Source: Subdoligranulum sp.
Lineage (GTDB): Bacteria; Bacillota; Clostridia; Oscillospirales; Ruminococcaceae
Assembly (NCBI GenBank): GCA_014799685.1
Contig: JAAVHN010000018.1
Span: 85,857-149,856, forward strand
DNA length: 64,000 bases
Direction: 5' to 3'
Shown here: positions 9,677 through 50,439 of the stretch, in pieces
Layout of the letters: each line of letters opens with the position of its first letter
Position numbering within the stretch: position 1 is the first letter of the stretch
The notes under the pieces: model-generated
The model's database searches: none
Told to the model about the DNA's origin: nothing
The model's input: the letters and a program-made list of their open reading frames with translations, nothing else
Translations under genes and position numbers: made by a program

Positions 9677-9692
9677 TTTTACATTTGTAAAA
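9677..9692. promoter_or_regulatory. perfect palindrome in the divergent intergenic region (candidate operator)
   Basis: TTTTACA-TT-TGTAAAA (7-bp arms), between the SLOG-like gene (minus) and the tandem XRE genes (plus). Confidence 0.3.
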
Positions 9693-9749: not shown

Positions 9750-10121
9750 ATGATGCCCGGGGGTGATATTTTGCCAGAAAAAGATCGTGCATTGATAAAA
9801 GCGATCGGCAAACGTGTTGCATTACGTCGGCGAGAATTAAAGCTGACGCAAGAGCAACTTGCCGAACGCGCGAATCTTTCTCAGCAATATATCGCATCTC
9901 TGGAGTGCGGTATCAGGGGACTTGGTGCGGAGAGCATTATTAAGCTTTCAAGAGCATTGCAGGTAAGCGCAGACTATCTCTTATTCGGGATCGAAAACAG
10001 TGAAGAATTCCGACGGTTTGACGATATGATCCGGCCGCTCAGCGCAAAGGAGCTGCTTGCACTTGAAGAAGTGATACAAGCATTTCTGAAAGTATGTGGA
10101 AATTCGGAGCGGGATAATTGA
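9750..10121 (+). CDS. XRE family HTH transcriptional regulator (copy 1 of a tandem pair)
   Basis: 123 aa: LTQEQLAERANLSQQYIASLECGIRGLGAESIIKLSRALQVSADYLLFG, plus a C-terminal helical extension. An alternative TTG start at 9771 follows GGGGGTG. Confidence 0.8.
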   Translation: MMPGGDILPEKDRALIKAIGKRVALRRRELKLTQEQLAERANLSQQYIASLECGIRGLGAESIIKLSRALQVSADYLLFGIENSEEFRRFDDMIRPLSAKELLALEEVIQAFLKVCGNSERDN

Positions 10122-10153: not shown

Positions 10154-10522
10154 ATGCTGCTCGGATGTGATATTTTGTCAGAAAAAGACAGAGCGTTAAT
10201 CAAAGAAATCGGCCAGCGTGTGCAATCTCGCCGGCGGCAATTGCGGTTGACGCAGGATGAATTAGCCGAACGCGCAAATCTTTCTTCGCAATATGTTGGC
10301 TGTGTAGAGAGCGGCCTTAAAGGACTTCGCGAGGAGACCATCATAAAACTCTCAAAAGCGTTACAGGTAAGCGCAGACTACATCCTGTTCGGCACGGCCG
10401 GCGGCGAGGATTACCGCCAGTTTGACGATATGATCCGGCCGCTCAGCGGAAAAGAATTGCTTGGGCTGGAAGAAATGGTAAAAGTTTATCTGATGGCTTG
10501 CGGCCATGCGGAATGGGACTGA
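10154..10522 (+). CDS. XRE family HTH transcriptional regulator (copy 2, paralog of copy 1)
   Basis: 122 aa, colinear with copy 1 (DILSEKDRALIKEIGQRV...LTQDELAERANLSSQYVGCVESGLKGL...FDDMIRPLSGKELLGLEE). An alternative TTG start lies at 10175. Confidence 0.8.
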   Translation: MLLGCDILSEKDRALIKEIGQRVQSRRRQLRLTQDELAERANLSSQYVGCVESGLKGLREETIIKLSKALQVSADYILFGTAGGEDYRQFDDMIRPLSGKELLGLEEMVKVYLMACGHAEWD

Positions 10523-38865: not shown

Positions 38866-38936
38866 TTTATAATCAGCCGAAAACCGGCCATCAGTTTTTA
38901 AAACACACAATACCTTACCGAAAGAGGGTGCAGAAA

Positions 38937-41174
38937 ATGAAGATGCCCATCGAAGAAGAACGCCTCATGGAACGGGTATGGATGGTTTTGCGCCTTGCCG
39001 GGGAAAACGGGCTGGAAGCCGAGGCGATCGACGCGCTGCCGCCGGAAGCGCTTTCTGCGCAGGGGATCGATCCGGATATGCTGCGGGAGGTGCGCGGATT
39101 TCTGCAGTTTTTGGACGAGATCCCCGGCAGCTTTCTCATTTACCGCGCCTCGGACGACGAGCGCATCGTCTTCGCGAACCGGGGGCTTTTGCGGCTGTTT
39201 GGGTGCGCATCCATCGCGGAGCTGCGCGCGCTCACGGGCAATTCGTTCCGGGGTATTGTGCATCCCGACGACCTCGACGCCGTGGAACAAAGCATCTCCC
39301 GGCAGATCGAGGGCAGCGACGGCCGGCTGGACTATGTGGAATACCGCATCCGGCGCAAGGACGGCACGGTGCGCCGTGTGGAGGATTACGGCCATTTGGT
39401 GCACGGCCGGAACACGGAGGATTTTTTCTATGTGTTTCTGGGCGACGCAACGGAAAAATACGAGCGCCGCGAACGCGAGCGCATTCTGCTCCAGAGCGCC
39501 GCGCGGGAAAAAGACCGCGAAATGCAAAAGCTCATCCAGCATTATGACGCCGAGCGCGCGCTGATCAATCAGGAATACCTGCGCCGCCTCGAGGTGATTG
39601 AGGGTCTCAGCATCAACTACGAATCGATTCTGTTTGCCGACCTCGATGCCGACCAGGTGCTGCCGTACCGGCTGAGCGTGCGCACGCAGCCCATGTTTGA
39701 AACACACCTTTCCCTGCGTGCATACAGCGAATATGCGGCGGAGTACGCGCAGCGCTGGGTACATCCCGAGGACCGGGAACGGGTTGCCAGGATGACCTCC
39801 GTCGGCCACATCCGGGAGGCGCTGGCGCAAAATTCATCCTTCTATTTCAATTACCGCGTGCTGATGGAGGAAGAGACGCAATATCTCCAGCTGCGCGTCG
39901 TCGCCGTTGGGGAAAGCGAGGGCCGGTGCTCGCAGATCGTATTGGGCTTTCGCAGTGTGGACGAGGAGATCCGGCGCGAGATGGAGCAAAAGCAGATCCT
40001 CGCGCAGGCGCTTACCAACGCAAACCTCGCCGTCACGGCCAAAAATACATTCCTCTCCAACATGTCGCACGATTTGCGCACACCGCTGAATGCGATCATC
40101 GGCTTTGCGCAGCTTGCAAAAAATTATGCCGGCGACCCAAAAGAACTGCTTGGATATCTCGATCGCATCGAGGCATCCGGCCGGCAGCTGTTTGAACTCA
40201 TCAGCAAGCTGCTGGAGCTGGCGAATATGGAATCGGAGGAATCCTCCGTGGCCGAGGTGGAATGCGTTCTGCGCGACATCGCACAGGATGTTTACCACTA
40301 CCTGCGCCCGCAGGCACAGGAAAAGGCCATCGATTTTTCCATGGAGATCGGCCGCCTGCGGCACGAGACGATTTTCAGCGATCCGGAAAAGCTGCATCAG
40401 CTGCTGATGTATCTTGCCAACAACGCAATCACTTACACGCCGCCGGAAGGGCGTGTGACGATCTCCATCGAGGAAAAAGAAGAAAAACTCGGACAGTATG
40501 CGTCTTACAGCATCCGTGTGCAGGATACGGGCATCGGTATCGGAGAGGAATTTCTGGAACAGATCTTTGAGCCGTTCTCCCGCGAAAAAAACACCACGCT
40601 CAGCGGCGTGCATGGCGCAGGGCTGGGGCTTTCCATCGTCAAGAACATCGTCGACATGATGGGCGGCACCATCGACGTGCAGAGCAGGCCGGACGAGGGC
40701 AGCACCTTCACGGTCGGGCTGAATTTCCGCGTGCGGGAAGATAAAGCGCCCACTCTTCGGGCGAAGGAAGCCGATACACCGCCCGTGTGCGGCAGGAACG
40801 TTCTTGTTGTGGAAGACAACGAGATCAATATGCAGATCGAAAAGGCGCTGCTGAAGATGAAAGGCTTTTCCGTGGATACCGCAGAGGACGGCAGCATCGC
40901 GCTGGAAAAGATACGCCGCGCCGCACCCGGCCAATACGACGTGATCCTGATGGATCTGCAAATGCCGGTGATGGACGGCTGGCAGGCCGCCGCAGAGATC
41001 CGGAAGTTAGAGAACCCGGCGCTCGCGAGCATCCCGATCATCGCCGTCAGCGCCAATTCCCTCAAAGAGGATGTGCGCCACTCGATGGAGAGCGGCATGA
41101 ACGCCCACCTGCCCAAGCCCATCGACATCAACGAGATCGTGCGGCAGATCGAGGCGCTGGTGCCAGGCATGTGA
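38937..41174 (+). CDS. PAS-domain hybrid sensor histidine kinase / response regulator
   Basis: Cytoplasmic (no TM seen). PAS (RIVFANRGLLRLFG...YVEYRIRRKDGTVRRVED), a second PAS-like region, HisKA (FLSNMSHDLRTPLNAI), HATPase (NAITYTP...DTGIGI...GAGLGLSIV), and a C-terminal REC (VLVVEDNEINMQI...ILMDLQMPVMDG...LPKP). ATG 38937 follows GAGGG. Confidence 0.9.
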   Translation: MKMPIEEERLMERVWMVLRLAGENGLEAEAIDALPPEALSAQGIDPDMLREVRGFLQFLDEIPGSFLIYRASDDERIVFANRGLLRLFGCASIAELRALTGNSFRGIVHPDDLDAVEQSISRQIEGSDGRLDYVEYRIRRKDGTVRRVEDYGHLVHGRNTEDFFYVFLGDATEKYERRERERILLQSAAREKDREMQKLIQHYDAERALINQEYLRRLEVIEGLSINYESILFADLDADQVLPYRLSVRTQPMFETHLSLRAYSEYAAEYAQRWVHPEDRERVARMTSVGHIREALAQNSSFYFNYRVLMEEETQYLQLRVVAVGESEGRCSQIVLGFRSVDEEIRREMEQKQILAQALTNANLAVTAKNTFLSNMSHDLRTPLNAIIGFAQLAKNYAGDPKELLGYLDRIEASGRQLFELISKLLELANMESEESSVAEVECVLRDIAQDVYHYLRPQAQEKAIDFSMEIGRLRHETIFSDPEKLHQLLMYLANNAITYTPPEGRVTISIEEKEEKLGQYASYSIRVQDTGIGIGEEFLEQIFEPFSREKNTTLSGVHGAGLGLSIVKNIVDMMGGTIDVQSRPDEGSTFTVGLNFRVREDKAPTLRAKEADTPPVCGRNVLVVEDNEINMQIEKALLKMKGFSVDTAEDGSIALEKIRRAAPGQYDVILMDLQMPVMDGWQAAAEIRKLENPALASIPIIAVSANSLKEDVRHSMESGMNAHLPKPIDINEIVRQIEALVPGM

Positions 41175-41270
41175 TCCATCCCCCGCCCCCGGCACTGCCG
41201 GGGACACCCGCAAAAAAGGCGTATCACGGAACGCGAAGTCCTGCGATACGCCTGCCCTTACAAACACTTT

Positions 41271-41315
41271 GGGGCTGTTGCGCAAGGTTTTTCCTTGGAC
41301 AACAGCCCCTTTTTC
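41271..41315 (+). terminator. rho-independent terminator, homologous in sequence to the one at 3390-3440
   Basis: GGGGCTGTTGC (41271-41281) pairs with CAACAGCCCC (41300-41309), followed by TTTTTC. The loop holds the same inner CAAGG/CCTTG hairpin as the 3390 element. Confidence 0.6.
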
Positions 41316-41334: not shown

Positions 41335-42999
41335 TTACGAGTGGTGCGCGTCGGCATGATGGCCGGAAGAATGGCCGGAATGATGACCGGAAGCGCCGGA
41401 ATTGCCGGAATTGCCAAAGCTGCCGGGCGCATTGGAAGCCGCTGTGCCGTGGTGGTGGCCTGCCTCGGTGCAGTCGAGCGCACAGGCGTGGTGGTGTTCA
41501 TAATCGGCGCAATCGGCAGGGCAATCGTGGTGGTGCGCGGCGTCCGTGCAGGCGGGGTCGCTGCAGCCCATGCCGGGGAGGAAGGCTGCTGCGGCAGGGG
41601 CTGCATCGGGCGTGCCCGGCAAGGGCGGATCGCTTTGCGTGTTCCCCTCCTGCATATTATTCGCGCCCGGGGATCCGGCTGTACCCGAGGGATTCGCCGC
41701 CCCTGCGGGATTGGCTGTGCCCGAAGGATTCGCTGCCCCTGCGGGATTCACTGTACCCGAGGGGGCGGCGGGATTCGGGCTTACCGGTATCACGGAGCAG
41801 CCCACCAGCGTGCCCAGGCTCATTGCCAGGATGACGGCGCATACAAACACCGCCGCACCGTTCTTCTTTTCCGTTTTTGTCAAAATATTTTGGAACCGTT
41901 TTTTCATAATCCGTTTTCCTCCGTAAAAATTCGTTGACAGCGCGGTCTTTTTGGCGCTTTGTTTCTGCAGTGCAGAGAGCAGCGCCTCTGCGTACGCTTT
42001 CCGCTCCGGATAGCTGAGATCCTTTATCACCCGTTCGTCACAGGATAGCTCCATATCGACCGCCGCTTCCCGCTGCATCACCCAGACCAGCGGATTCCAC
42101 CAGTAAACCGCGCGAACGGCCTCAAAAAGCAGCTTGCAATACAAGTCTCCCCGTTTCAGGTGAACGAGCTCATGCTTCAAAATAAAAGAGAGTTCCTCCG
42201 CGCTGTATTGCGCCTTTGGCAGCACCAGAACAGGGCGTAAAAAGCCGGTGAGCATGGGGCTGGAGGCCTCCGGGTACCCTATGACGGATACCGCGCTGCG
42301 GATTTGCAATTCGCCTTTCAGCTTCCGCAGCAGGCGCAAAACCGCTTCATCCTGTACGGCACTGCCTTTTTTGCGAAGCCGGCGCCGATAGAGCAGATAG
42401 CTGCCCAGGGGTACGCACATCATGGCCACGCTGCCGGACACCCAGACGCCGGCGATGAGGTCCAGCCATGAAATACGGTTGCCCGTATCTTCCGGCTGCG
42501 CCGCAATGGGCGCTGTCATTTGCGCCGGGAGCGCAACGATCACCCGCCCGCGGGGCGCTTCGGCGGCCGGTGTCTCCGGCGCTGTTTGTCCCCGTTCCGG
42601 TTCCGCTTCGGGCGCCGGTTCCGGCTCCAATTCCGGATTGGCTTCGGACGCCGATCCCGGCTCCAATTCCGGATTGGCTTCGGACGCCGATCCCGGCTCC
42701 AATTCCGGATTGGCTTCGGACGCTGATCCCGGCTCCAATTCCGGCCCCGACCCCAGCTTCGTTTCGGGCGCCGGGCCTGCCATTGCCGGAATTTCCCCCT
42801 GCGGCCGCAGCTCTGCCGCCGTTCCCCCGCTGCCTCCCCCGAACGGGAACAGCAGCCGCGCTGCCAGCACGATCCAGACCCAATACTTCCACCTTGCGGC
42901 ATAGCGCCGATCGAAAAGCGGTGTGAGCAACAGCAGCAAAACGATCATCAGGCTGACCGGGAGCGAGATCTCTAAAAAAGCAAGAAACAGATCCGTCAT
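41335..42999 (-). CDS. BlaR1/MecR1-like M56 family membrane metalloprotease with a low-complexity, His/Cys-rich extracytoplasmic C-terminal tail
   Basis: 554 aa. N-terminal TMs, (GSASEANPELEP)x3 loop repeat, HExxH (KHELVHLKRGD), final TM (AAVFVCAVILAMSLGTLVGC), Pro/Ala/Gly repeats, then CSDPACTDAAHHHDCPADCADYEHHHACALDCTEAGHHH...GHHSGHSSGHHADAHHS. There is an ATGA overlap with the upstream BlaI-family gene. Confidence 0.85.
   Translation of the reverse strand: MTDLFLAFLEISLPVSLMIVLLLLLTPLFDRRYAARWKYWVWIVLAARLLFPFGGGSGGTAAELRPQGEIPAMAGPAPETKLGSGPELEPGSASEANPELEPGSASEANPELEPGSASEANPELEPEPAPEAEPERGQTAPETPAAEAPRGRVIVALPAQMTAPIAAQPEDTGNRISWLDLIAGVWVSGSVAMMCVPLGSYLLYRRRLRKKGSAVQDEAVLRLLRKLKGELQIRSAVSVIGYPEASSPMLTGFLRPVLVLPKAQYSAEELSFILKHELVHLKRGDLYCKLLFEAVRAVYWWNPLVWVMQREAAVDMELSCDERVIKDLSYPERKAYAEALLSALQKQSAKKTALSTNFYGGKRIMKKRFQNILTKTEKKNGAAVFVCAVILAMSLGTLVGCSVIPVSPNPAAPSGTVNPAGAANPSGTANPAGAANPSGTAGSPGANNMQEGNTQSDPPLPGTPDAAPAAAAFLPGMGCSDPACTDAAHHHDCPADCADYEHHHACALDCTEAGHHHGTAASNAPGSFGNSGNSGASGHHSGHSSGHHADAHHS
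42623..42744. repeat. near-perfect 36-bp in-frame tandem repeat, 3.4 copies, inside the M56 gene
   Basis: GGCTCCAATTCCGGATTGGCTTCGGACGCCGATCCC starts at 42623, 42659 and 42695 (one C-to-T change), with a partial copy to 42744. It encodes GSASEANPELEP repeats on the minus strand. Confidence 0.95.
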
Positions 43000-43385
43000 C
43001 GCCGCTCGTCCTCCAGCCGGTCCAGAAACGCCCTCAGCTCCGCGATATCAGAATCCCCGATCGCCCGGTCGCTGTACAGTGTCGCCACGAGATCCTGTAT
43101 GGAATTGTGATACAGCTTTTCCAGAAAACGCCTGCTTGTACCCGCTTTGTATGCGTGCTCCGGGATCACCGGGGAATACAGATTGCTACCCGTCGAACGG
43201 TCGCAGCTTACAAAGCCCTTGCCGCACAGCCGTGCCAGGGAGGTCATCAAGGTGGAAAGCTGCCACTTTCTTCGCGCCTGTAATTCTTTTAAGATATAAT
43301 TCGAGGGCACCGGGGCCTCGCTGCTCCAGATCACCTGCATGATCTCCAGCTCCGCCTCGCCCAGCTTCTTCTGCGTATTATCCAT
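42996..43385 (-). CDS. BlaI/MecI/CopY family transcriptional repressor
   Basis: MDNTQKKLGEAELEIMQVIWSSEAPVPSNYILKELQARRKWQLSTLMTSLARLCGKGFVSCDRSTGSNLYSPVI...DIAELRAFLDRLE, the winged-helix Penicillinase_R pattern with no CopY-type C-terminal Cys motif. ATG 43385 follows GGGAGGG. Confidence 0.85.
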   Translation of the reverse strand: MDNTQKKLGEAELEIMQVIWSSEAPVPSNYILKELQARRKWQLSTLMTSLARLCGKGFVSCDRSTGSNLYSPVIPEHAYKAGTSRRFLEKLYHNSIQDLVATLYSDRAIGDSDIAELRAFLDRLEDERR

Positions 43386-43423
43386 CCCATGTGCCCTCCC
43401 GGTATGATGCGCCCGCATATCCA

Positions 43424-43453
43424 TATTATACAAGCGTATAATACAGGTGTCAA
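43424..43453 (-). promoter_or_regulatory. consensus promoter with overlapping 20-bp palindromic operator for the blaI/blaR1-like operon 1
   Basis: Minus strand reads TTGACA (43448-43453), 17 nt, TATAAT (43425-43430). The palindrome TATTATAC-GCTT-GTATAATA (43424-43443) covers the spacer and the -10. Confidence 0.6.
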
Positions 43454-43600: not shown

Positions 43601-44491
43601 CTACACCCCTTCCAAATCAAAGGCAGGAGTGTATTCTTCTTTTGCGCTGCTGCGCTGCTGCATGTAGCCCTCTTCCAGCCCCAGCGATACCGCGTAGTCC
43701 ACGGCGCGCCGGTATTCATACGTAGAGATGCGGCGGCTGAGCGCCTTGTGCTGCGCCGCCTTGTAAAACGGCGTATACTGGCTCATCAAACTCAGCAAAA
43801 AGCCGCCGCGCGGCAGCGCGGCCAGATAGTCCAGCACGGCGCGGGTATCCGCGTCCGCGTTCGGCAGCGCCAGATGACGCACGATCACGCCGCTTTGCAG
43901 CATGCCGTCCGCATCGAACCGGGGCGGGCCCGCCTGCGCGAGCATCGCCTCCAGCGCGGCGCTTGCCACGGTAAAATAATCCGGCGCGGCGGAATACTCC
44001 GCCGAAAGCGCGGCGGAGCAGTATTTGAAATCCGTCAGCCAGATATCCACATACCCGCGCAGTGCGGCGACGGCCTGTGCCGTCTCGTACCCGCCCGTAT
44101 TGTATACCACCGGGATCGAGAGCCTGCCTTTTACAAGATCCAGCGCCGCGCATACCCACGGCAGGTAGTGCCCCGCCGTGACAAGGTTCAGATTGTGCGC
44201 GCCCTGCTGCTGCAGCGAAAGGAAAATTTCCGCAAGGCGCTCCACGGAAATTTCTTTGCCGAAATTTCCGGCGCTGATGGCATGGTTCTGGCAGTAGCAG
44301 CACCGCAGCGCGCAGCCGGAAAAGAACACCGTGCCGCTGCCGCGCACACCGGAGATGCACGGCTCCTCCCAAAAATGCAGCGCCGCCCGCGCGGCCTTTA
44401 TGCGCGCGCCGCCGCCGCAGAGGCCCTGCGTCTTCGTCCTGTCCGCCCCGCACCGCCGCGGGCACAGGGTGCAGTGTGTGGGAATGTTCAT
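43601..44491 (-). CDS. radical SAM protein, PflX-like (putative glycyl-radical activating enzyme family)
   Basis: MNIPTHCTLCPRRCGADRTKTQGLCG...VFFSGCALRCCYCQN (CxxxCxxC) ...LVTAGHYLP. 296 aa. RBS AAAGGAGGG. Confidence 0.8.
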   Translation of the reverse strand: MNIPTHCTLCPRRCGADRTKTQGLCGGGARIKAARAALHFWEEPCISGVRGSGTVFFSGCALRCCYCQNHAISAGNFGKEISVERLAEIFLSLQQQGAHNLNLVTAGHYLPWVCAALDLVKGRLSIPVVYNTGGYETAQAVAALRGYVDIWLTDFKYCSAALSAEYSAAPDYFTVASAALEAMLAQAGPPRFDADGMLQSGVIVRHLALPNADADTRAVLDYLAALPRGGFLLSLMSQYTPFYKAAQHKALSRRISTYEYRRAVDYAVSLGLEEGYMQQRSSAKEEYTPAFDLEGV

Positions 44492-48044: not shown

Positions 48045-48059
48045 AACGAGGTGTTCCCT

Positions 48060-48419
48060 ATGACGGATTTTAAAATCGGTTCTGCCGAGGCGCGCTTTGC
48101 CGATTTGATCTGGGCGCATGAACCGATCGCGTCCGGGCAGCTGGCAAAGCTGGGCGCCGCCGAATTTTCCTGGAAGAAAACCACGTCGTTCACGGTGCTG
48201 AAGCGCTTGTGCGACCGGGGCCTTTTTCAGAACGAAAACGGCACCGTCACCTCGCTTGTTTCGCGCCAGGAATTTTACGCCCGGCACGGCGAACAGGTCG
48301 TGGCTGGGGGCTTTGGCGGCTCGCTTCCCGCTTTTGTGGCCGCCTTCGGCTCCCGGAACAAGCTCTCGGACGCCGAAATCGAAGAACTGGAAAAGATCAT
48401 CGAAAGCATGAGGGAGTGA
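48060..48419 (+). CDS. BlaI/MecI/CopY family transcriptional repressor
   Basis: MTDFKIGSAEARFADLIWAHEPIASGQLAKLGAAEFSWKKTTSFTVLKRLCDRGLFQNENGTVTSLVSRQEFYA... ATG 48060 follows GAGGTG. Confidence 0.85.
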   Translation: MTDFKIGSAEARFADLIWAHEPIASGQLAKLGAAEFSWKKTTSFTVLKRLCDRGLFQNENGTVTSLVSRQEFYARHGEQVVAGGFGGSLPAFVAAFGSRNKLSDAEIEELEKIIESMRE

Positions 48420-48423
48420 TCGT

Positions 48424-50439
48424 ATGCCCGCAAATCTTTTTATCCGCATCCTCGATATGAGCAAAACGGCCGGTGTCGTGATCCTTTTCGTGCTCGCGGC
48501 GCGGCTGCTTTTGAAAAAGGCGCCGAAGTGGATCTCCTACGCCCTGTGGGCGGTAGTGCTGTTCCGCCTGCTCTGCCCGCTGTCCGTTGAGTCGCCCGTG
48601 AGCATCGTTCCCGCAATGACACCTGCCGCGCAGAATTACCGCCTTGCGGACGAGCCGGTCTCCCCCGCCGGCGCAGGGCTCGCCGCGTACCGTGCCGTCG
48701 GCGACGCGCTGAACGGCGGGCTGGGCACCCAGTATATCCGGACGACCGAGACGGACGAAAACGGATCGCCCCGGTATGTGACCGCCGACTGGTGGAGCGT
48801 CTGGATCCTGTTCGGGCAATATGTCTGGCTCGCGGGCATCGCCGTGATGCTGCTGCGCAGCGTTATTTCGTATGCGAAGCTCCGCCGAAAACTCCGGATT
48901 TCCATCCCGCTGCGGGACAATATCTATCTTGCGGACGATATCGAATCGCCCTTTGTGATCGGGCTGCTCTGTCCGAGGATCTATCTTCCCTGCGGCCTCG
49001 ACGAAAAAGAACAGGCGTATATCCTTCTGCACGAGCAGTACCACATCGAGCGAAAAGACCACATCTGGAAGGCATTGGCGTTTCTGGCGCTGTGCCTCCA
49101 CTGGTTCAACCCGCTGGTGTGGCTGGCCTTTGTGCTGGCGAGCAGGGATATGGAAATGAGCTGCGACGAGGCCGTGCTGCGCGGGGTGGGCGATGACATC
49201 CGGTCCGGATACGCCGCCTCGCTTCTGGCGCTCGCCACCGGCCGCCGCATCATCGCCGGAACGCCGCTCGGCTTTGGAGAGGGAAACGCAAAGCAGCGCA
49301 TCCGGAATCTGGGGAAATGGAAGCAGCCCGTCCTCTGGGCCGTGATCGCCGCGGCAGCCGCCGCGCTTTTGCTCACGGTGTGCCTTGCCACAAACCCGGC
49401 CGGCGGCAGCGGGAAAACGCAGGAGCTCACCGGCCTTGTCACAGGGATTCGGACAGACGAAAACGGCGATTTGACGGCCATTGTGCTCCAAACGAGCGGC
49501 GGGAAGGAAACCGGCATCCTGCTTACAGAAGAAACCATCGCGTTCCCGCCGGGAAGCGGCGCCTGGACTTCGGAGGAAGGGCGCGCCGCATTCCGGGCGG
49601 CGCTCGCGCCGGACAGCCTGATCATCGCCGACTGCACCCGCGGCAAGCATACGCTTGCCGCAGACGGCGGCGCGCAAATCGCCGCCTATGAGGCGCGCAG
49701 GATCCAAATCAGCGGGCAGCTTCTCCGCGGCGCCGCCGCTGCGCAGGACGGGACAATTCTTGATGTGCTGGAGGACAATATCTGGCAGCGCCGCACCTAT
49801 CAGCTGGCAGACGGAACCGAGCTGCTGCAGGTAAACGCCCCGCACGGCCCCCAAAACAGTTATGTGGGTGGCGTCGAGGGCTTTGAGACCCTGAGCGAAA
49901 CAGCGCAGGAACAATTGGCCGCTTTTTATAACAGCCGCGGCCTGCTGTATGACGAACAGGATGTACTGGAACAGGTCTATTCCCTCTACCAGCAGTTGGG
50001 CGCGGATTTTCGCCCCGGCCTTGTGGAACAAAGCGTTTCCGCCTGTGCCTCCAATGACCGGATCCTCTATTTCCTCACCGCCGTCACCCTGCCCACCGGC
50101 CGGGAAAACGGGAATATTTGCTGGGAGGTTCGCCTGTGCGACGCCTTCGACCGGGAGACAGGCGCGCGCATCGACACCTGGGATCTGTTCACCGCGCCCA
50201 AAGAGACGGTGATACAGGCCCTGCTGGATGCAGGCGGTATCACCGGCTATCCCCTGCGGGCCGAAATGGAGGCCGCCGTCTGGGACGGGCAAATCATTTT
50301 CTTTCCCGACGGCATCTCGGTAGAGTTTGCGCCGGGCGCGCTGCCCGGCGAGCCGAATACTGTTGGCTTTGGCGTAGACTACACGCCTGTGATCCGGGCG
50401 CTGCTGCAGGATTGGGCCATACCGGATGGCCGCGGTTGA
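48424..50439 (+). CDS. BlaR1/MecR1-like M56 family membrane metalloprotease with a roughly 330-aa uncharacterised extracytoplasmic domain
   Basis: 671 aa. TMs, HExxH (LLHEQYHIERKDH), later TM (PVLWAVIAAAAAALLLTVC), then a C-terminal domain with no SxxK/PBP-like motifs that I can see. Confidence 0.85.
   Translation: MPANLFIRILDMSKTAGVVILFVLAARLLLKKAPKWISYALWAVVLFRLLCPLSVESPVSIVPAMTPAAQNYRLADEPVSPAGAGLAAYRAVGDALNGGLGTQYIRTTETDENGSPRYVTADWWSVWILFGQYVWLAGIAVMLLRSVISYAKLRRKLRISIPLRDNIYLADDIESPFVIGLLCPRIYLPCGLDEKEQAYILLHEQYHIERKDHIWKALAFLALCLHWFNPLVWLAFVLASRDMEMSCDEAVLRGVGDDIRSGYAASLLALATGRRIIAGTPLGFGEGNAKQRIRNLGKWKQPVLWAVIAAAAAALLLTVCLATNPAGGSGKTQELTGLVTGIRTDENGDLTAIVLQTSGGKETGILLTEETIAFPPGSGAWTSEEGRAAFRAALAPDSLIIADCTRGKHTLAADGGAQIAAYEARRIQISGQLLRGAAAAQDGTILDVLEDNIWQRRTYQLADGTELLQVNAPHGPQNSYVGGVEGFETLSETAQEQLAAFYNSRGLLYDEQDVLEQVYSLYQQLGADFRPGLVEQSVSACASNDRILYFLTAVTLPTGRENGNICWEVRLCDAFDRETGARIDTWDLFTAPKETVIQALLDAGGITGYPLRAEMEAAVWDGQIIFFPDGISVEFAPGALPGEPNTVGFGVDYTPVIRALLQDWAIPDGRG

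Follow-up and report, generated by a model that had tools for sequence, protein, structure and literature searches.

A 45-residue Cys6His6 module in the tail of a BlaR1-type M56 protease and in a family of lipoproteins, a candidate extracytoplasmic metal-binding domain

In the canonical BlaR1 system, events at an extracellular sensor pass through the transmembrane (TM) helices of the protein to its protease, which cuts the repressor BlaI directly (PMC9834060). Few signalling systems of gut Firmicutes outnumber pairs of this kind, each consisting of a BlaI-like repressor and a membrane protease of the M56 family, and outside beta-lactam sensing the signal is known for almost none of these pairs. 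Here we describe a two-gene blaI–M56 operon in 64,000 nucleotides of DNA from Subdoligranulum sp. (GenBank assembly GCA_014799685.1, contig JAAVHN010000018.1, positions 85,857 to 149,856; this whole stretch is called the window below). Its M56 protein ends in a tail dense in Cys and His residues, within which we recognize a 45-residue module.

The locus resembles the BlaR1/MecR1–BlaI/MecI systems of S. aureus and B. licheniformis in having an M56 gluzincin domain with four predicted TM helices, a BlaI-family repressor gene immediately upstream, two predicted operator dyads at an apparently autoregulated promoter, an extracytoplasmic region that starts straight after TM4, and an autocleavage-loop motif. 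It differs from them in that the protein has no penicillin-binding-protein (PBP) sensor and no gene for a beta-lactamase or PBP2a is linked to it, in that TM4 ends in a lipobox rather than in the SpsB site at Gly331, and in that the operator half-site is TTATAC/GTATAA rather than TACA/TGTA. Only about 6% of M56 proteins have a transpeptidase domain, the commonest architecture being an M56 domain with an unannotated C-terminal region (PMC13492132), and so the absence of a PBP domain is ordinary.

Other relatives of the system have non-transpeptidase regions or no sensor domain at all. CenIR of C. difficile and BlaIR of Mycobacterium are BlaI/M56 pairs with a non-transpeptidase C-terminal region (PMC13492132); for the tail of CenR, however, disorder is predicted and no motif has been recognised, whereas that of the window protein holds a discrete and widely shared domain made up mostly of candidate metal ligands. 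In the PetRP system of Synechocystis, which governs the switch between cytochrome c6 and plastocyanin, a repressor of the BlaI/CopY family is degraded in a copper-dependent manner by PetP, a membrane protease of the M56 type that lacks any extracytoplasmic domain at its C-terminus; the authors of that work propose that copper is sensed by two Met residues in the TM2–TM3 loop (10.1101/2020.07.31.226407). The architecture of PetRP, an M56 protease with a BlaI/CopY-family repressor that lacks the CopY Cys motif, is that of the window operon, but the latter has the Cys6His6 module and a His tract and belongs to a Gram-positive anaerobe. A metal-responsive BlaI/M56 switch is thus already known, and the present one would be a variant built on an undescribed domain. 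CopY and TcrY share the winged-helix repressor family PF03965 with the window repressor but differ in mechanism: CopY acts without a protease and binds Cu(I)/Zn(II) directly at its C-terminal CxCx4CxC motif.

Proteins that are dense in Cys and His, have little structure in the apo form and bind metal include the SmtA/BmtA metallothioneins, Hpn, the Pht proteins, and ZnuA/ZinT and COG0523 proteins with their His-rich loops. The Pht proteins are surface-exposed and have repeated His motifs; the metallothioneins and Hpn are cytoplasmic. We know of none of these that is fused to an M56 protease. The module has no sequence-family match to any of them in Pfam, NCBIfam or the PDB sequences, although one COG0523 protein shares with it the sub-motif C-x4-C-TD-xS-HxH. 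Literature searches returned no description of a 45-residue Cys6His6 module; the domain appears to be new, as do the family of lipoproteins built from it and the fact that M56 switches have acquired it repeatedly.

The Cys/His tail of the M56 protein

A preliminary description of the window, made from the letters and open reading frames alone, had drawn attention to 41335..41620 (residues 460–554 of the M56 protein) as a His/Cys-rich tail made up of three HHH-x-C-x3-C-like units. The block is there, as CSDPAC-TDAA-HHH-DCPADC-ADYE-HHH-ACALDC-TEAG-HHH, but its conserved register, as judged from 60 copies, is instead C-x(3-4)-C-x4-H-x-H, three times over. It forms part of a module with the pattern [FY]xx[GS]MGC-x4-C-x4-HxH-x-C-x3-C-x4-HxH-x-C-x3-C-x4-HxH (Table 1). 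All 60 copies that we extracted were exactly 45 residues long, with no insertions or deletions. In an alignment of 39 copies, M5, G6, the six Cys and the six His were invariant, the middle residue of each HxH was freely H, Y, F or W, and the semi-conserved non-ligand positions were few (F1, T13, D14, P22, D24, Y28, L36 and D37). The window copy aligned without gaps to the other 38, at identities of 38–91%.

The preliminary description had stated that a tail absent or unconserved in orthologs would refute its proposal; the Cys/His block is near-invariant among orthologs with an overall identity of about 70%. Comparison of the window with two orthologs gave ratios of nonsynonymous to synonymous change (pN/pS) of 0.78–1.10 in the L2 loop, 0.67–0.75 in linker 1 and 0.28–0.34 in the core consisting of TM3, the protease and TM4; that of the module, 0.08–0.15, was the lowest in the protein. 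Within the cluster of proteins at least 90% identical, the module and the His tract were the same in all members, and the 12-residue (36-bp) repeats in L2 and in the tail linker differed in copy number, L2 having one to three copies. Sixteen of the 18 His residues of the protein fall in its last 82 residues (binomial P=9e-11, with the proteins of the window as background), so that the His-rich composition is not due to chance; the remaining two are the histidines of the HExxH motif. The Pro/Ala/Gly/Asn repeats noted earlier after the last TM helix are found as NPAGAANPSGTA in two copies plus a degenerate first copy, corresponding to a 36-bp tandem repeat (2.4 copies, 41677..41763), and the terminus that had been reported, GHHSGHSSGHHADAHHS, is likewise present.

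The protein in which the module sits is an M56 protease with intact catalytic motifs. It scored 172.7 bits against PF05569, for which the gathering cut-off is 31, and its residues 185–389 align with residues 109–317 of S. aureus BlaR1 (8EXP), that is, with the protease region up to the start of TM4. The catalytic motifs H201ExxH and E242xxxD and the autocleavage site F284 have been defined in BlaR1 (PMC9834060). LSTNF358 of the window protein aligns to the autocleavage site LSHS/F284, with the loop motif LS..F.G.K kept, and the catalytic motifs and autocleavage-site residues are unchanged in the four tail-bearing relatives (P0001–P0004). The search for a penicillin-binding domain gave no match to PF00905, and the profile blaR1_generic scored 145.9 bits, against a cut-off of 400, over profile positions 105–325 only. 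Beta-lactam sensing was rejected because there is no transpeptidase/PBP domain. The earlier view that the sensor domain had been replaced stands insofar as the Cys/His tail occupies the place of the PBP domain; such replacement is itself ordinary, however, and the block is a mobile module rather than an idiosyncratic tail.

Hydropathy placed hydrophobic segments at residues ~4–29, 178–203 and 381–405, and a second helix (~39–53) was read off the sequence. Lys and Arg together account for 4 of the 9 residues of loop 1, 6 of the 122 of L2 (which is net acidic), 34 of the 177 of L3, and none of the 153 of the tail (residues 402–554), a distribution that obeys the positive-inside rule. The protein is thus predicted to have the topology of BlaR1, with four TM helices, the N-terminus outside, the HExxH-bearing L3 inside and the C-terminus outside. 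The predicted extracytoplasmic location of the tail, which the preliminary description had supposed, follows from this charge pattern and from the alignment with BlaR1 and, independently, from the position of the module elsewhere, in the mature part of secretory proteins with a signal peptide or lipobox.

Fusions, split operons and stand-alone lipoproteins

A profile made from the 51-residue core of the tail was searched against 1.84 billion representative proteins and matched 55 clusters at E≤1e-3, all of them from gut Clostridia and 30 of them at E≤1e-10; a word-index homolog search with the same core gave no match, probably since its words are of low complexity. Scans of species-representative genomes and metagenomes, for which an alignment tighter than the 39-copy set was used, yielded 45 further module loci. 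Most of the titled records are metagenome-assembled genomes of Clostridia, three are labelled Bacteroides or Prevotella, and one is from a human gut metagenome. The isolate names 'Lapin', 'Mgla' and 'MGBC' suggest, as names alone, rabbit and rodent gut sources, and the sequencing runs turned up by the search were of gut-metagenome DNA, with no RNA among them. The module and the module lipoproteins belonged to no family in Pfam, NCBIfam or the PDB sequences, the only matches being weak ones to generic lipoprotein signal peptides.

Most carriers of the module are small proteins of 63–330 residues that begin with a signal peptide, in most cases bearing a lipobox (LAGC, LTGC or similar), and continue with one to four tandem modules; nearly all carriers have an ending of the type HH-x(2-4)-HH. 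One such lipoprotein (P0125) matched window positions 41446..41583 by tblastn with E=4e-20. Lipoproteins of a single type (P0121, with signal peptide MGNNKIWISLLALVFLLAGC; L011 and L041–L045) have two, three or four tandem modules in different assemblies, and module copy number therefore varies. Two of the profile-search matches (P0174 and P0198) are GTPases of the CobW/COG0523 family; P0174 contains seven tandem copies of ...CSEPACTDASHSHxH..., a sub-motif of the module start, and C-x4-C-TD-xS-HxH recurs in the metal-binding linker region of the CobW/COG0523 metallochaperone GTPases. A further carrier without an M56 domain, P0165 (352 residues; cluster members P0195–P0197), has no Pfam match. 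It apparently crosses the membrane once, a short cytoplasmic stretch at the N-terminus being followed outside by ~230 residues, a single module and a His tract, and it might represent a different type of transmembrane signalling protein.

The association of the module with M56 proteases takes two forms. Among the 120 listed homologs of the whole window M56 protein, only the four closest keep the Cys/His block: P0001, at 93% identity, and P0002–P0004, at ~60% by BLASTP and ~70% in the alignment. The other 115 listed homologs, which are 38–56% identical over the local BLASTP match, have unrelated C-terminal domains and are from Lachnospiraceae where the source is named. Fusions were nevertheless found elsewhere: a C-terminal module is present in the M56 representatives P0124, P0126, P0135, P0145, P0160 and P0173 and in the M56 proteins of L008, L009 and L013, each of these last three being preceded by blaI. 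The module-fused M56 domains fall into at least six lineages. On the evidence of these alignments, the module is a domain that has joined M56 proteins several times independently, since the fused lineages are no more than 39% identical to one another, while the window M56 protein is 53% identical to a relative without the module. In P0124, P0135 and L013, one or two M23 peptidase domains lie between TM4 and the module, which can therefore be added to other extracytoplasmic domains.

In the second form the module is on a separate protein. Seven species representatives (L017, L020, L021, L025, L026, L028 and L032) have split operons in which blaI, a gene for an M56 protein of ~350–400 residues and a gene for a module lipoprotein follow one another in the same direction with short gaps. 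The M56 proteins of these operons lack the module, and six of the seven have a terminal His tract of their own (for example, GGSHDGHHSESHHDSSHHDGSHH). We note that in L017 (6224..7420) and its equivalents in L020, L025, L026, L028 and L032 the M56 protein ends in a long His tract, such as GHHSESHHDSSHHDGSHH, after a disordered-looking spacer of ~100 residues, and that the lipoprotein gene begins ~30–220 bp after the M56 gene. That the module occurs both fused to M56 proteins and split from them is the best evidence we have that it would work together with BlaI/M56 switches; apart from blaI and M56, a survey of the neighbours of module genes revealed no recurrent family that points to a function.

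Meanwhile, TM4 itself has features of a lipoprotein signal. By the usual criterion such a signal consists of a charged n-region, a hydrophobic h-region and a lipobox, [LVI][ASTVI][GAS]C, at the N-terminus of a protein; TM4 shows all three, but internally. Irrespective of the C-terminal domain, TM4 combined a Lys-rich n-region and a hydrophobic core with a terminal lipobox in 110 of 119 homologs (LVGC in 88 of them, mostly as SLGTLVGC|S), and the variable domain begins right after the Cys. In other M56 lineages with the module, the corresponding residues are LTAC, LVAC or AVGC. In S. aureus BlaR1, by contrast, the sensor is shed when signal peptidase I (SpsB) cuts at the equivalent place after TM4, at Gly331 (PMC9834060). 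A lipobox conserved at this internal site suggests lipidation of the sensor, and perhaps cutting by signal peptidase II, with the sensor thereby retained at the membrane; this would represent a processing step so far undescribed in M56 sensors. Literature searches returned no paper describing an internal lipobox in M56 sensors.

Possible roles of the module

We infer that the Cys and His residues of the module bind metal, and that binding is transmitted to the protease in a response whose direction could be to metal excess or to starvation. The case for a transition metal is made by the density of ligands (twelve in 45 positions, besides the His tract), the location outside the membrane, the lack of a confident apo fold and the sub-motif shared with CobW/COG0523 proteins. 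The three C-x3/4-C-x4-H-x-H sub-sites probably constitute up to three Cys2His2-type sites or else one small metallothionein-like cluster. The Gly-Met-x-Cys start of the module presumably resembles the GMxCxxC loop of heavy-metal-associated domains, a resemblance that we treat as a lead only.

We consider the chances about even that the operon is an autoregulated BlaI/M56 proteolytic switch in which an extracytoplasmic metal-binding input controls cleavage of the repressor. A transition metal (Zn(II), Ni(II), Co(II) and Cu(I) are all possible) would load the module and the His tract at the outer face of the membrane, and loading would alter the conformation or the dimer state of the M56 protein. 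The cytoplasmic HExxH protease would then cut the BlaI-like repressor and so free two TTATAC-N4-GTATAA dyads at the operon's own promoter, together with unlinked targets outside the window. In our best reading of the sequences, the module would be an input, or an input and an effector combined.

Several observations weigh against a switch with a metal-binding input. Neither the window nor the syntenic orthologs have a gene for a metal transporter, metallochaperone or metalloregulator beside the operon, and the genes around those of the stand-alone lipoproteins are a mixed set (ABC ATPases, MATE proteins, histidine kinases and response regulators, acetyltransferase-like proteins and others). 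An operator search of the 64-kb window revealed dyads at the operon's own promoter only, plus one TACA-TT-TGTA site with two mismatches, and from 64 kb no regulon beyond autoregulation could be defined. An AlphaFold2 model of the module, made from 39 sequences, had no secondary structure and a mean predicted local distance difference test score of 57.7, which is as expected of a metal-dependent fold; the model is uninformative, and there is no solved homolog. Where the module follows M23 domains, as in proteins of the P0124, P0135 and L013 type, other parts of the protein may sense as well, or the module may be no sensor at all; in the split operons the module gene occupies the position of an effector, and the module may be a metal-binding output as well or instead. 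Finally, the six invariant Cys residues would fit a thiol-redox switch equally well.

The position of the module gene in the split operons fits a module that is mainly an output, that is, a surface metal sponge or scavenger, comparable to metallothioneins or Pht proteins, whose amount is set by the BlaI/M56 switch. Sensing would then fall to the HH tract, the L2 loop or an unrelated cue, and derepression of the fused form would just yield more of the tethered module. This is a real, if minority, possibility. Most carriers are stand-alone lipoproteins with one to four tandem copies, their copy number varies within a lineage, the lipoprotein is the sole non-regulatory gene product of the seven split operons (often followed by a convergent gene), and the M56 protein of most of these operons has a His tract and no module. 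It is harder to square with the covalent fusion of the module to a sensor-protease in at least five independent lineages, as an abundant effector would be unusual on a low-copy regulator and a single copy on each M56 protein could bind little metal. A module could, however, be sensor and sponge at once. A thiol-redox sensor of oxygen or oxidants, which the preliminary description had already raised beside metal sensing, strikes us as improbable. In a strict anaerobe exposed to oxidants, the three CxxxC pairs, free or as Zn-thiolates, would form disulfides and thereby activate the M56 protein, as in RsrA or Hsp33 but outside the cell. That the six invariant Cys are arranged as three close pairs is in keeping with this, as is the setting in gut Clostridia, where extracytoplasmic thiols can remain reduced. 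But a pure disulfide switch has no need of six invariant His and an HH-x-HH tract, the tandem multi-copy lipoproteins suit binding capacity more than sensing, and thioredoxin- or peroxidase-type genes did not recur in the neighbour survey.

To a structural role we give little credence. Small Cys/His domains often are structural interaction modules, and a zinc-knuckle-like domain, folded around its metal, could bind a non-metal ligand (a cell-wall fragment, a peptide or a host molecule) or mediate metal-bridged oligomerisation; the location of the module after M23 peptidoglycan-hydrolase domains in some M56 proteins would fit such a role. The few semi-conserved non-ligand positions leave little surface for specific recognition, however, and labile binding of metal is suggested by the His tract that goes with the module. 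As for the tail being non-functional, composition-biased low complexity, this is almost certainly wrong. The flanking linkers do have that character, being copy-variable repeats with pN/pS near 1, but for the module such a view is refuted by the profile matches (55 clusters, and 45 loci besides), by the ligands, invariant in 60 copies of fixed length, and by the lowest pN/pS in the protein.

A wider proposal builds on the metal-binding switch, and we put it forward tentatively and with considerable doubt. The module would characterise a class of proteins, so far overlooked, that handle metal outside the cytoplasm of gut Clostridia. Together with BlaI/M56 it would make a two-piece system for sensing and sequestering metal at the surface; TM4 would be an internal lipoprotein signal, so that the sensor is lipid-anchored at Cys401 and possibly cut by signal peptidase II. 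If so, the fused proteins would be functionally equal to the split operons, with their M56 protein and separate module lipoprotein, and they would provide a retained-sensor counterpart to the SpsB-mediated shedding of the sensor from S. aureus BlaR1. The module marks a family of small surface lipoproteins that is in no domain library, and these may contribute to the uptake or buffering of Zn, Ni, Co or Cu by anaerobic commensals of the gut, an environment in which metals are limited by both the host and sulfide. Because its conserved positions are almost only Cys and His, the input is chemically readable, and an orphan M56 switch becomes a testable metal or redox hypothesis.

Organisation of the operon and its surroundings

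The coordinates of the operon and its parts are collected in Table 1. The repressor gene and the M56 gene are joined by an ATGA overlap of the stop codon of the former and the start codon of the latter, and are translationally coupled. This overlap, a promoter with dyads, a terminator and, past the terminator, a convergent gene for a hybrid histidine kinase (38928..41174, plus strand) together indicate that blaI and M56 form a two-gene operon, which is apparently autoregulated. Dyad 1 has perfect copies at the equivalent position in three orthologous loci (L001, L002 and L004) and no perfect copy elsewhere among the 49 loci. Dyad 2 is a putative second operator; its window copy is degenerate, that of the ortholog L001 (9581–9596) perfect.

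Table 1. Positions of the operon, its control elements and the parts of the M56 protein in the window
Feature	Position	Strand	Evidence or remark
BlaI/MecI-family winged-helix repressor, 129 residues	42996..43385	-	Penicillinase_R E=3.7e-27
M56 (BlaR1-type) membrane metalloprotease with Cys/His tail, 554 residues	41335..42999	-	PF05569 Peptidase_M56 E=1.3e-50
Sigma-70-type promoter of blaI–M56 operon, TTGACA-17 nt-TATAAT	43425..43453	-	12/12 consensus matches; also in orthologous loci L001, L004
Predicted operator dyad 1, TTATAC-N4-GTATAA	43426..43441	.	Overlaps -10 box; sole perfect match in 64-kb window
Dyad 2, ATATGC-GGGC-GCATCA	43405..43420	.	~22 bp downstream of dyad 1; symmetry mostly kept
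36-bp tandem repeat PELEPGSASEAN, 3.9 copies, in acidic extracytoplasmic L2 loop	42605..42744	-	Tandem Repeats Finder
Zinc motif H276-E-L-V-H280	42160..42174	-	Aligned to BlaR1 H201ExxH
Third-ligand motif E317xxxD321 (E317LSCD321)	~42037..42051	-	Aligned to BlaR1 E242xxxD
TM4, residues 381–401, ending in lipobox L-V-G-C401 after Lys-rich stretch	41797..41859	-	Hydropathy
Linker 1, residues 402–472, Pro/Ala/Gly/Asn spacer	41584..41796	-	Low conservation, length variable
45-residue Cys6His6 module, F473–H517, FLPGMGCSDPACTDAAHHHDCPADCADYEHHHACALDCTEAGHHH	41449..41583	-	Profile search and alignment
Linker 2, residues 518–537, Gly/Ser/Asn-rich, variable	41389..41448	-	
C-terminal His tract GHHSGHSSGHHADAHHS, HH-x(2-4)-HH type	41338..41388	-	
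Intrinsic terminator of the operon, two stable hairpins, UUUUUU after second	41208..41309	-	-60.9 kcal/mol, z=-6.0; 3' of M56 stop

The repressor is a member of the Penicillinase_R winged-helix family (PF03965), against whose profile it scored 95.4 bits (cut-off 22.6). Its span had been assigned correctly at the outset: the likely start is the ATG at 43385, 8 nt past the ribosome-binding site GGGAGGG, and the start choice is the same in the orthologous loci. The absence of the CopY motif CxCx4CxC, also noted at the outset, is evident both from the sequence and from the alignment, C-terminal Cys being absent. The repressor matched the CopY/TcrY equivalog TIGR02698 in part only, at 61 bits against a cut-off of 121.95, and is thus not CopY/TcrY; its scores against the BlaI/MecI equivalogs were also under the cut-offs.

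Directly upstream of blaI is a gene for a radical-SAM protein of 296 residues (43601..44491, minus strand), which matched PF04055 at 30.4 bits (cut-off 29.5) and the 4Fe-4S cluster domain PF13353 and is syntenic in L001, L002 and L004. We considered it as a maturase of the Cys-rich tail and rejected this, because such a gene is not found beside other module carriers and because the tail is extracytoplasmic; nothing evident links the gene to the operon in function.

Elsewhere in the window, a palindrome resembling a BlaI/CopY box, TTTTACATTTGTAAAA (TACA-TT-TGTA), is located at 9677..9692, ~60 bp upstream of the first of two tandem genes for XRE-type helix-turn-helix proteins (9750..10121 and 10154..10522). 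The match is near chance level, and the segment around the palindrome is of lower G+C content (0.52); in the operator search, two of 100 shuffles gave at least two matches.

Finally, we note that the window has a second BlaI/M56 pair ~5 kb from the first, on the plus strand (48051..48419 and 48424..50439). Its M56 protein, of 671 residues, has the motif HEQYH and a different C-terminal region of ~330 residues, with no module and no lipobox after TM4. The syntenic relatives L001 and L002 also have a second pair.

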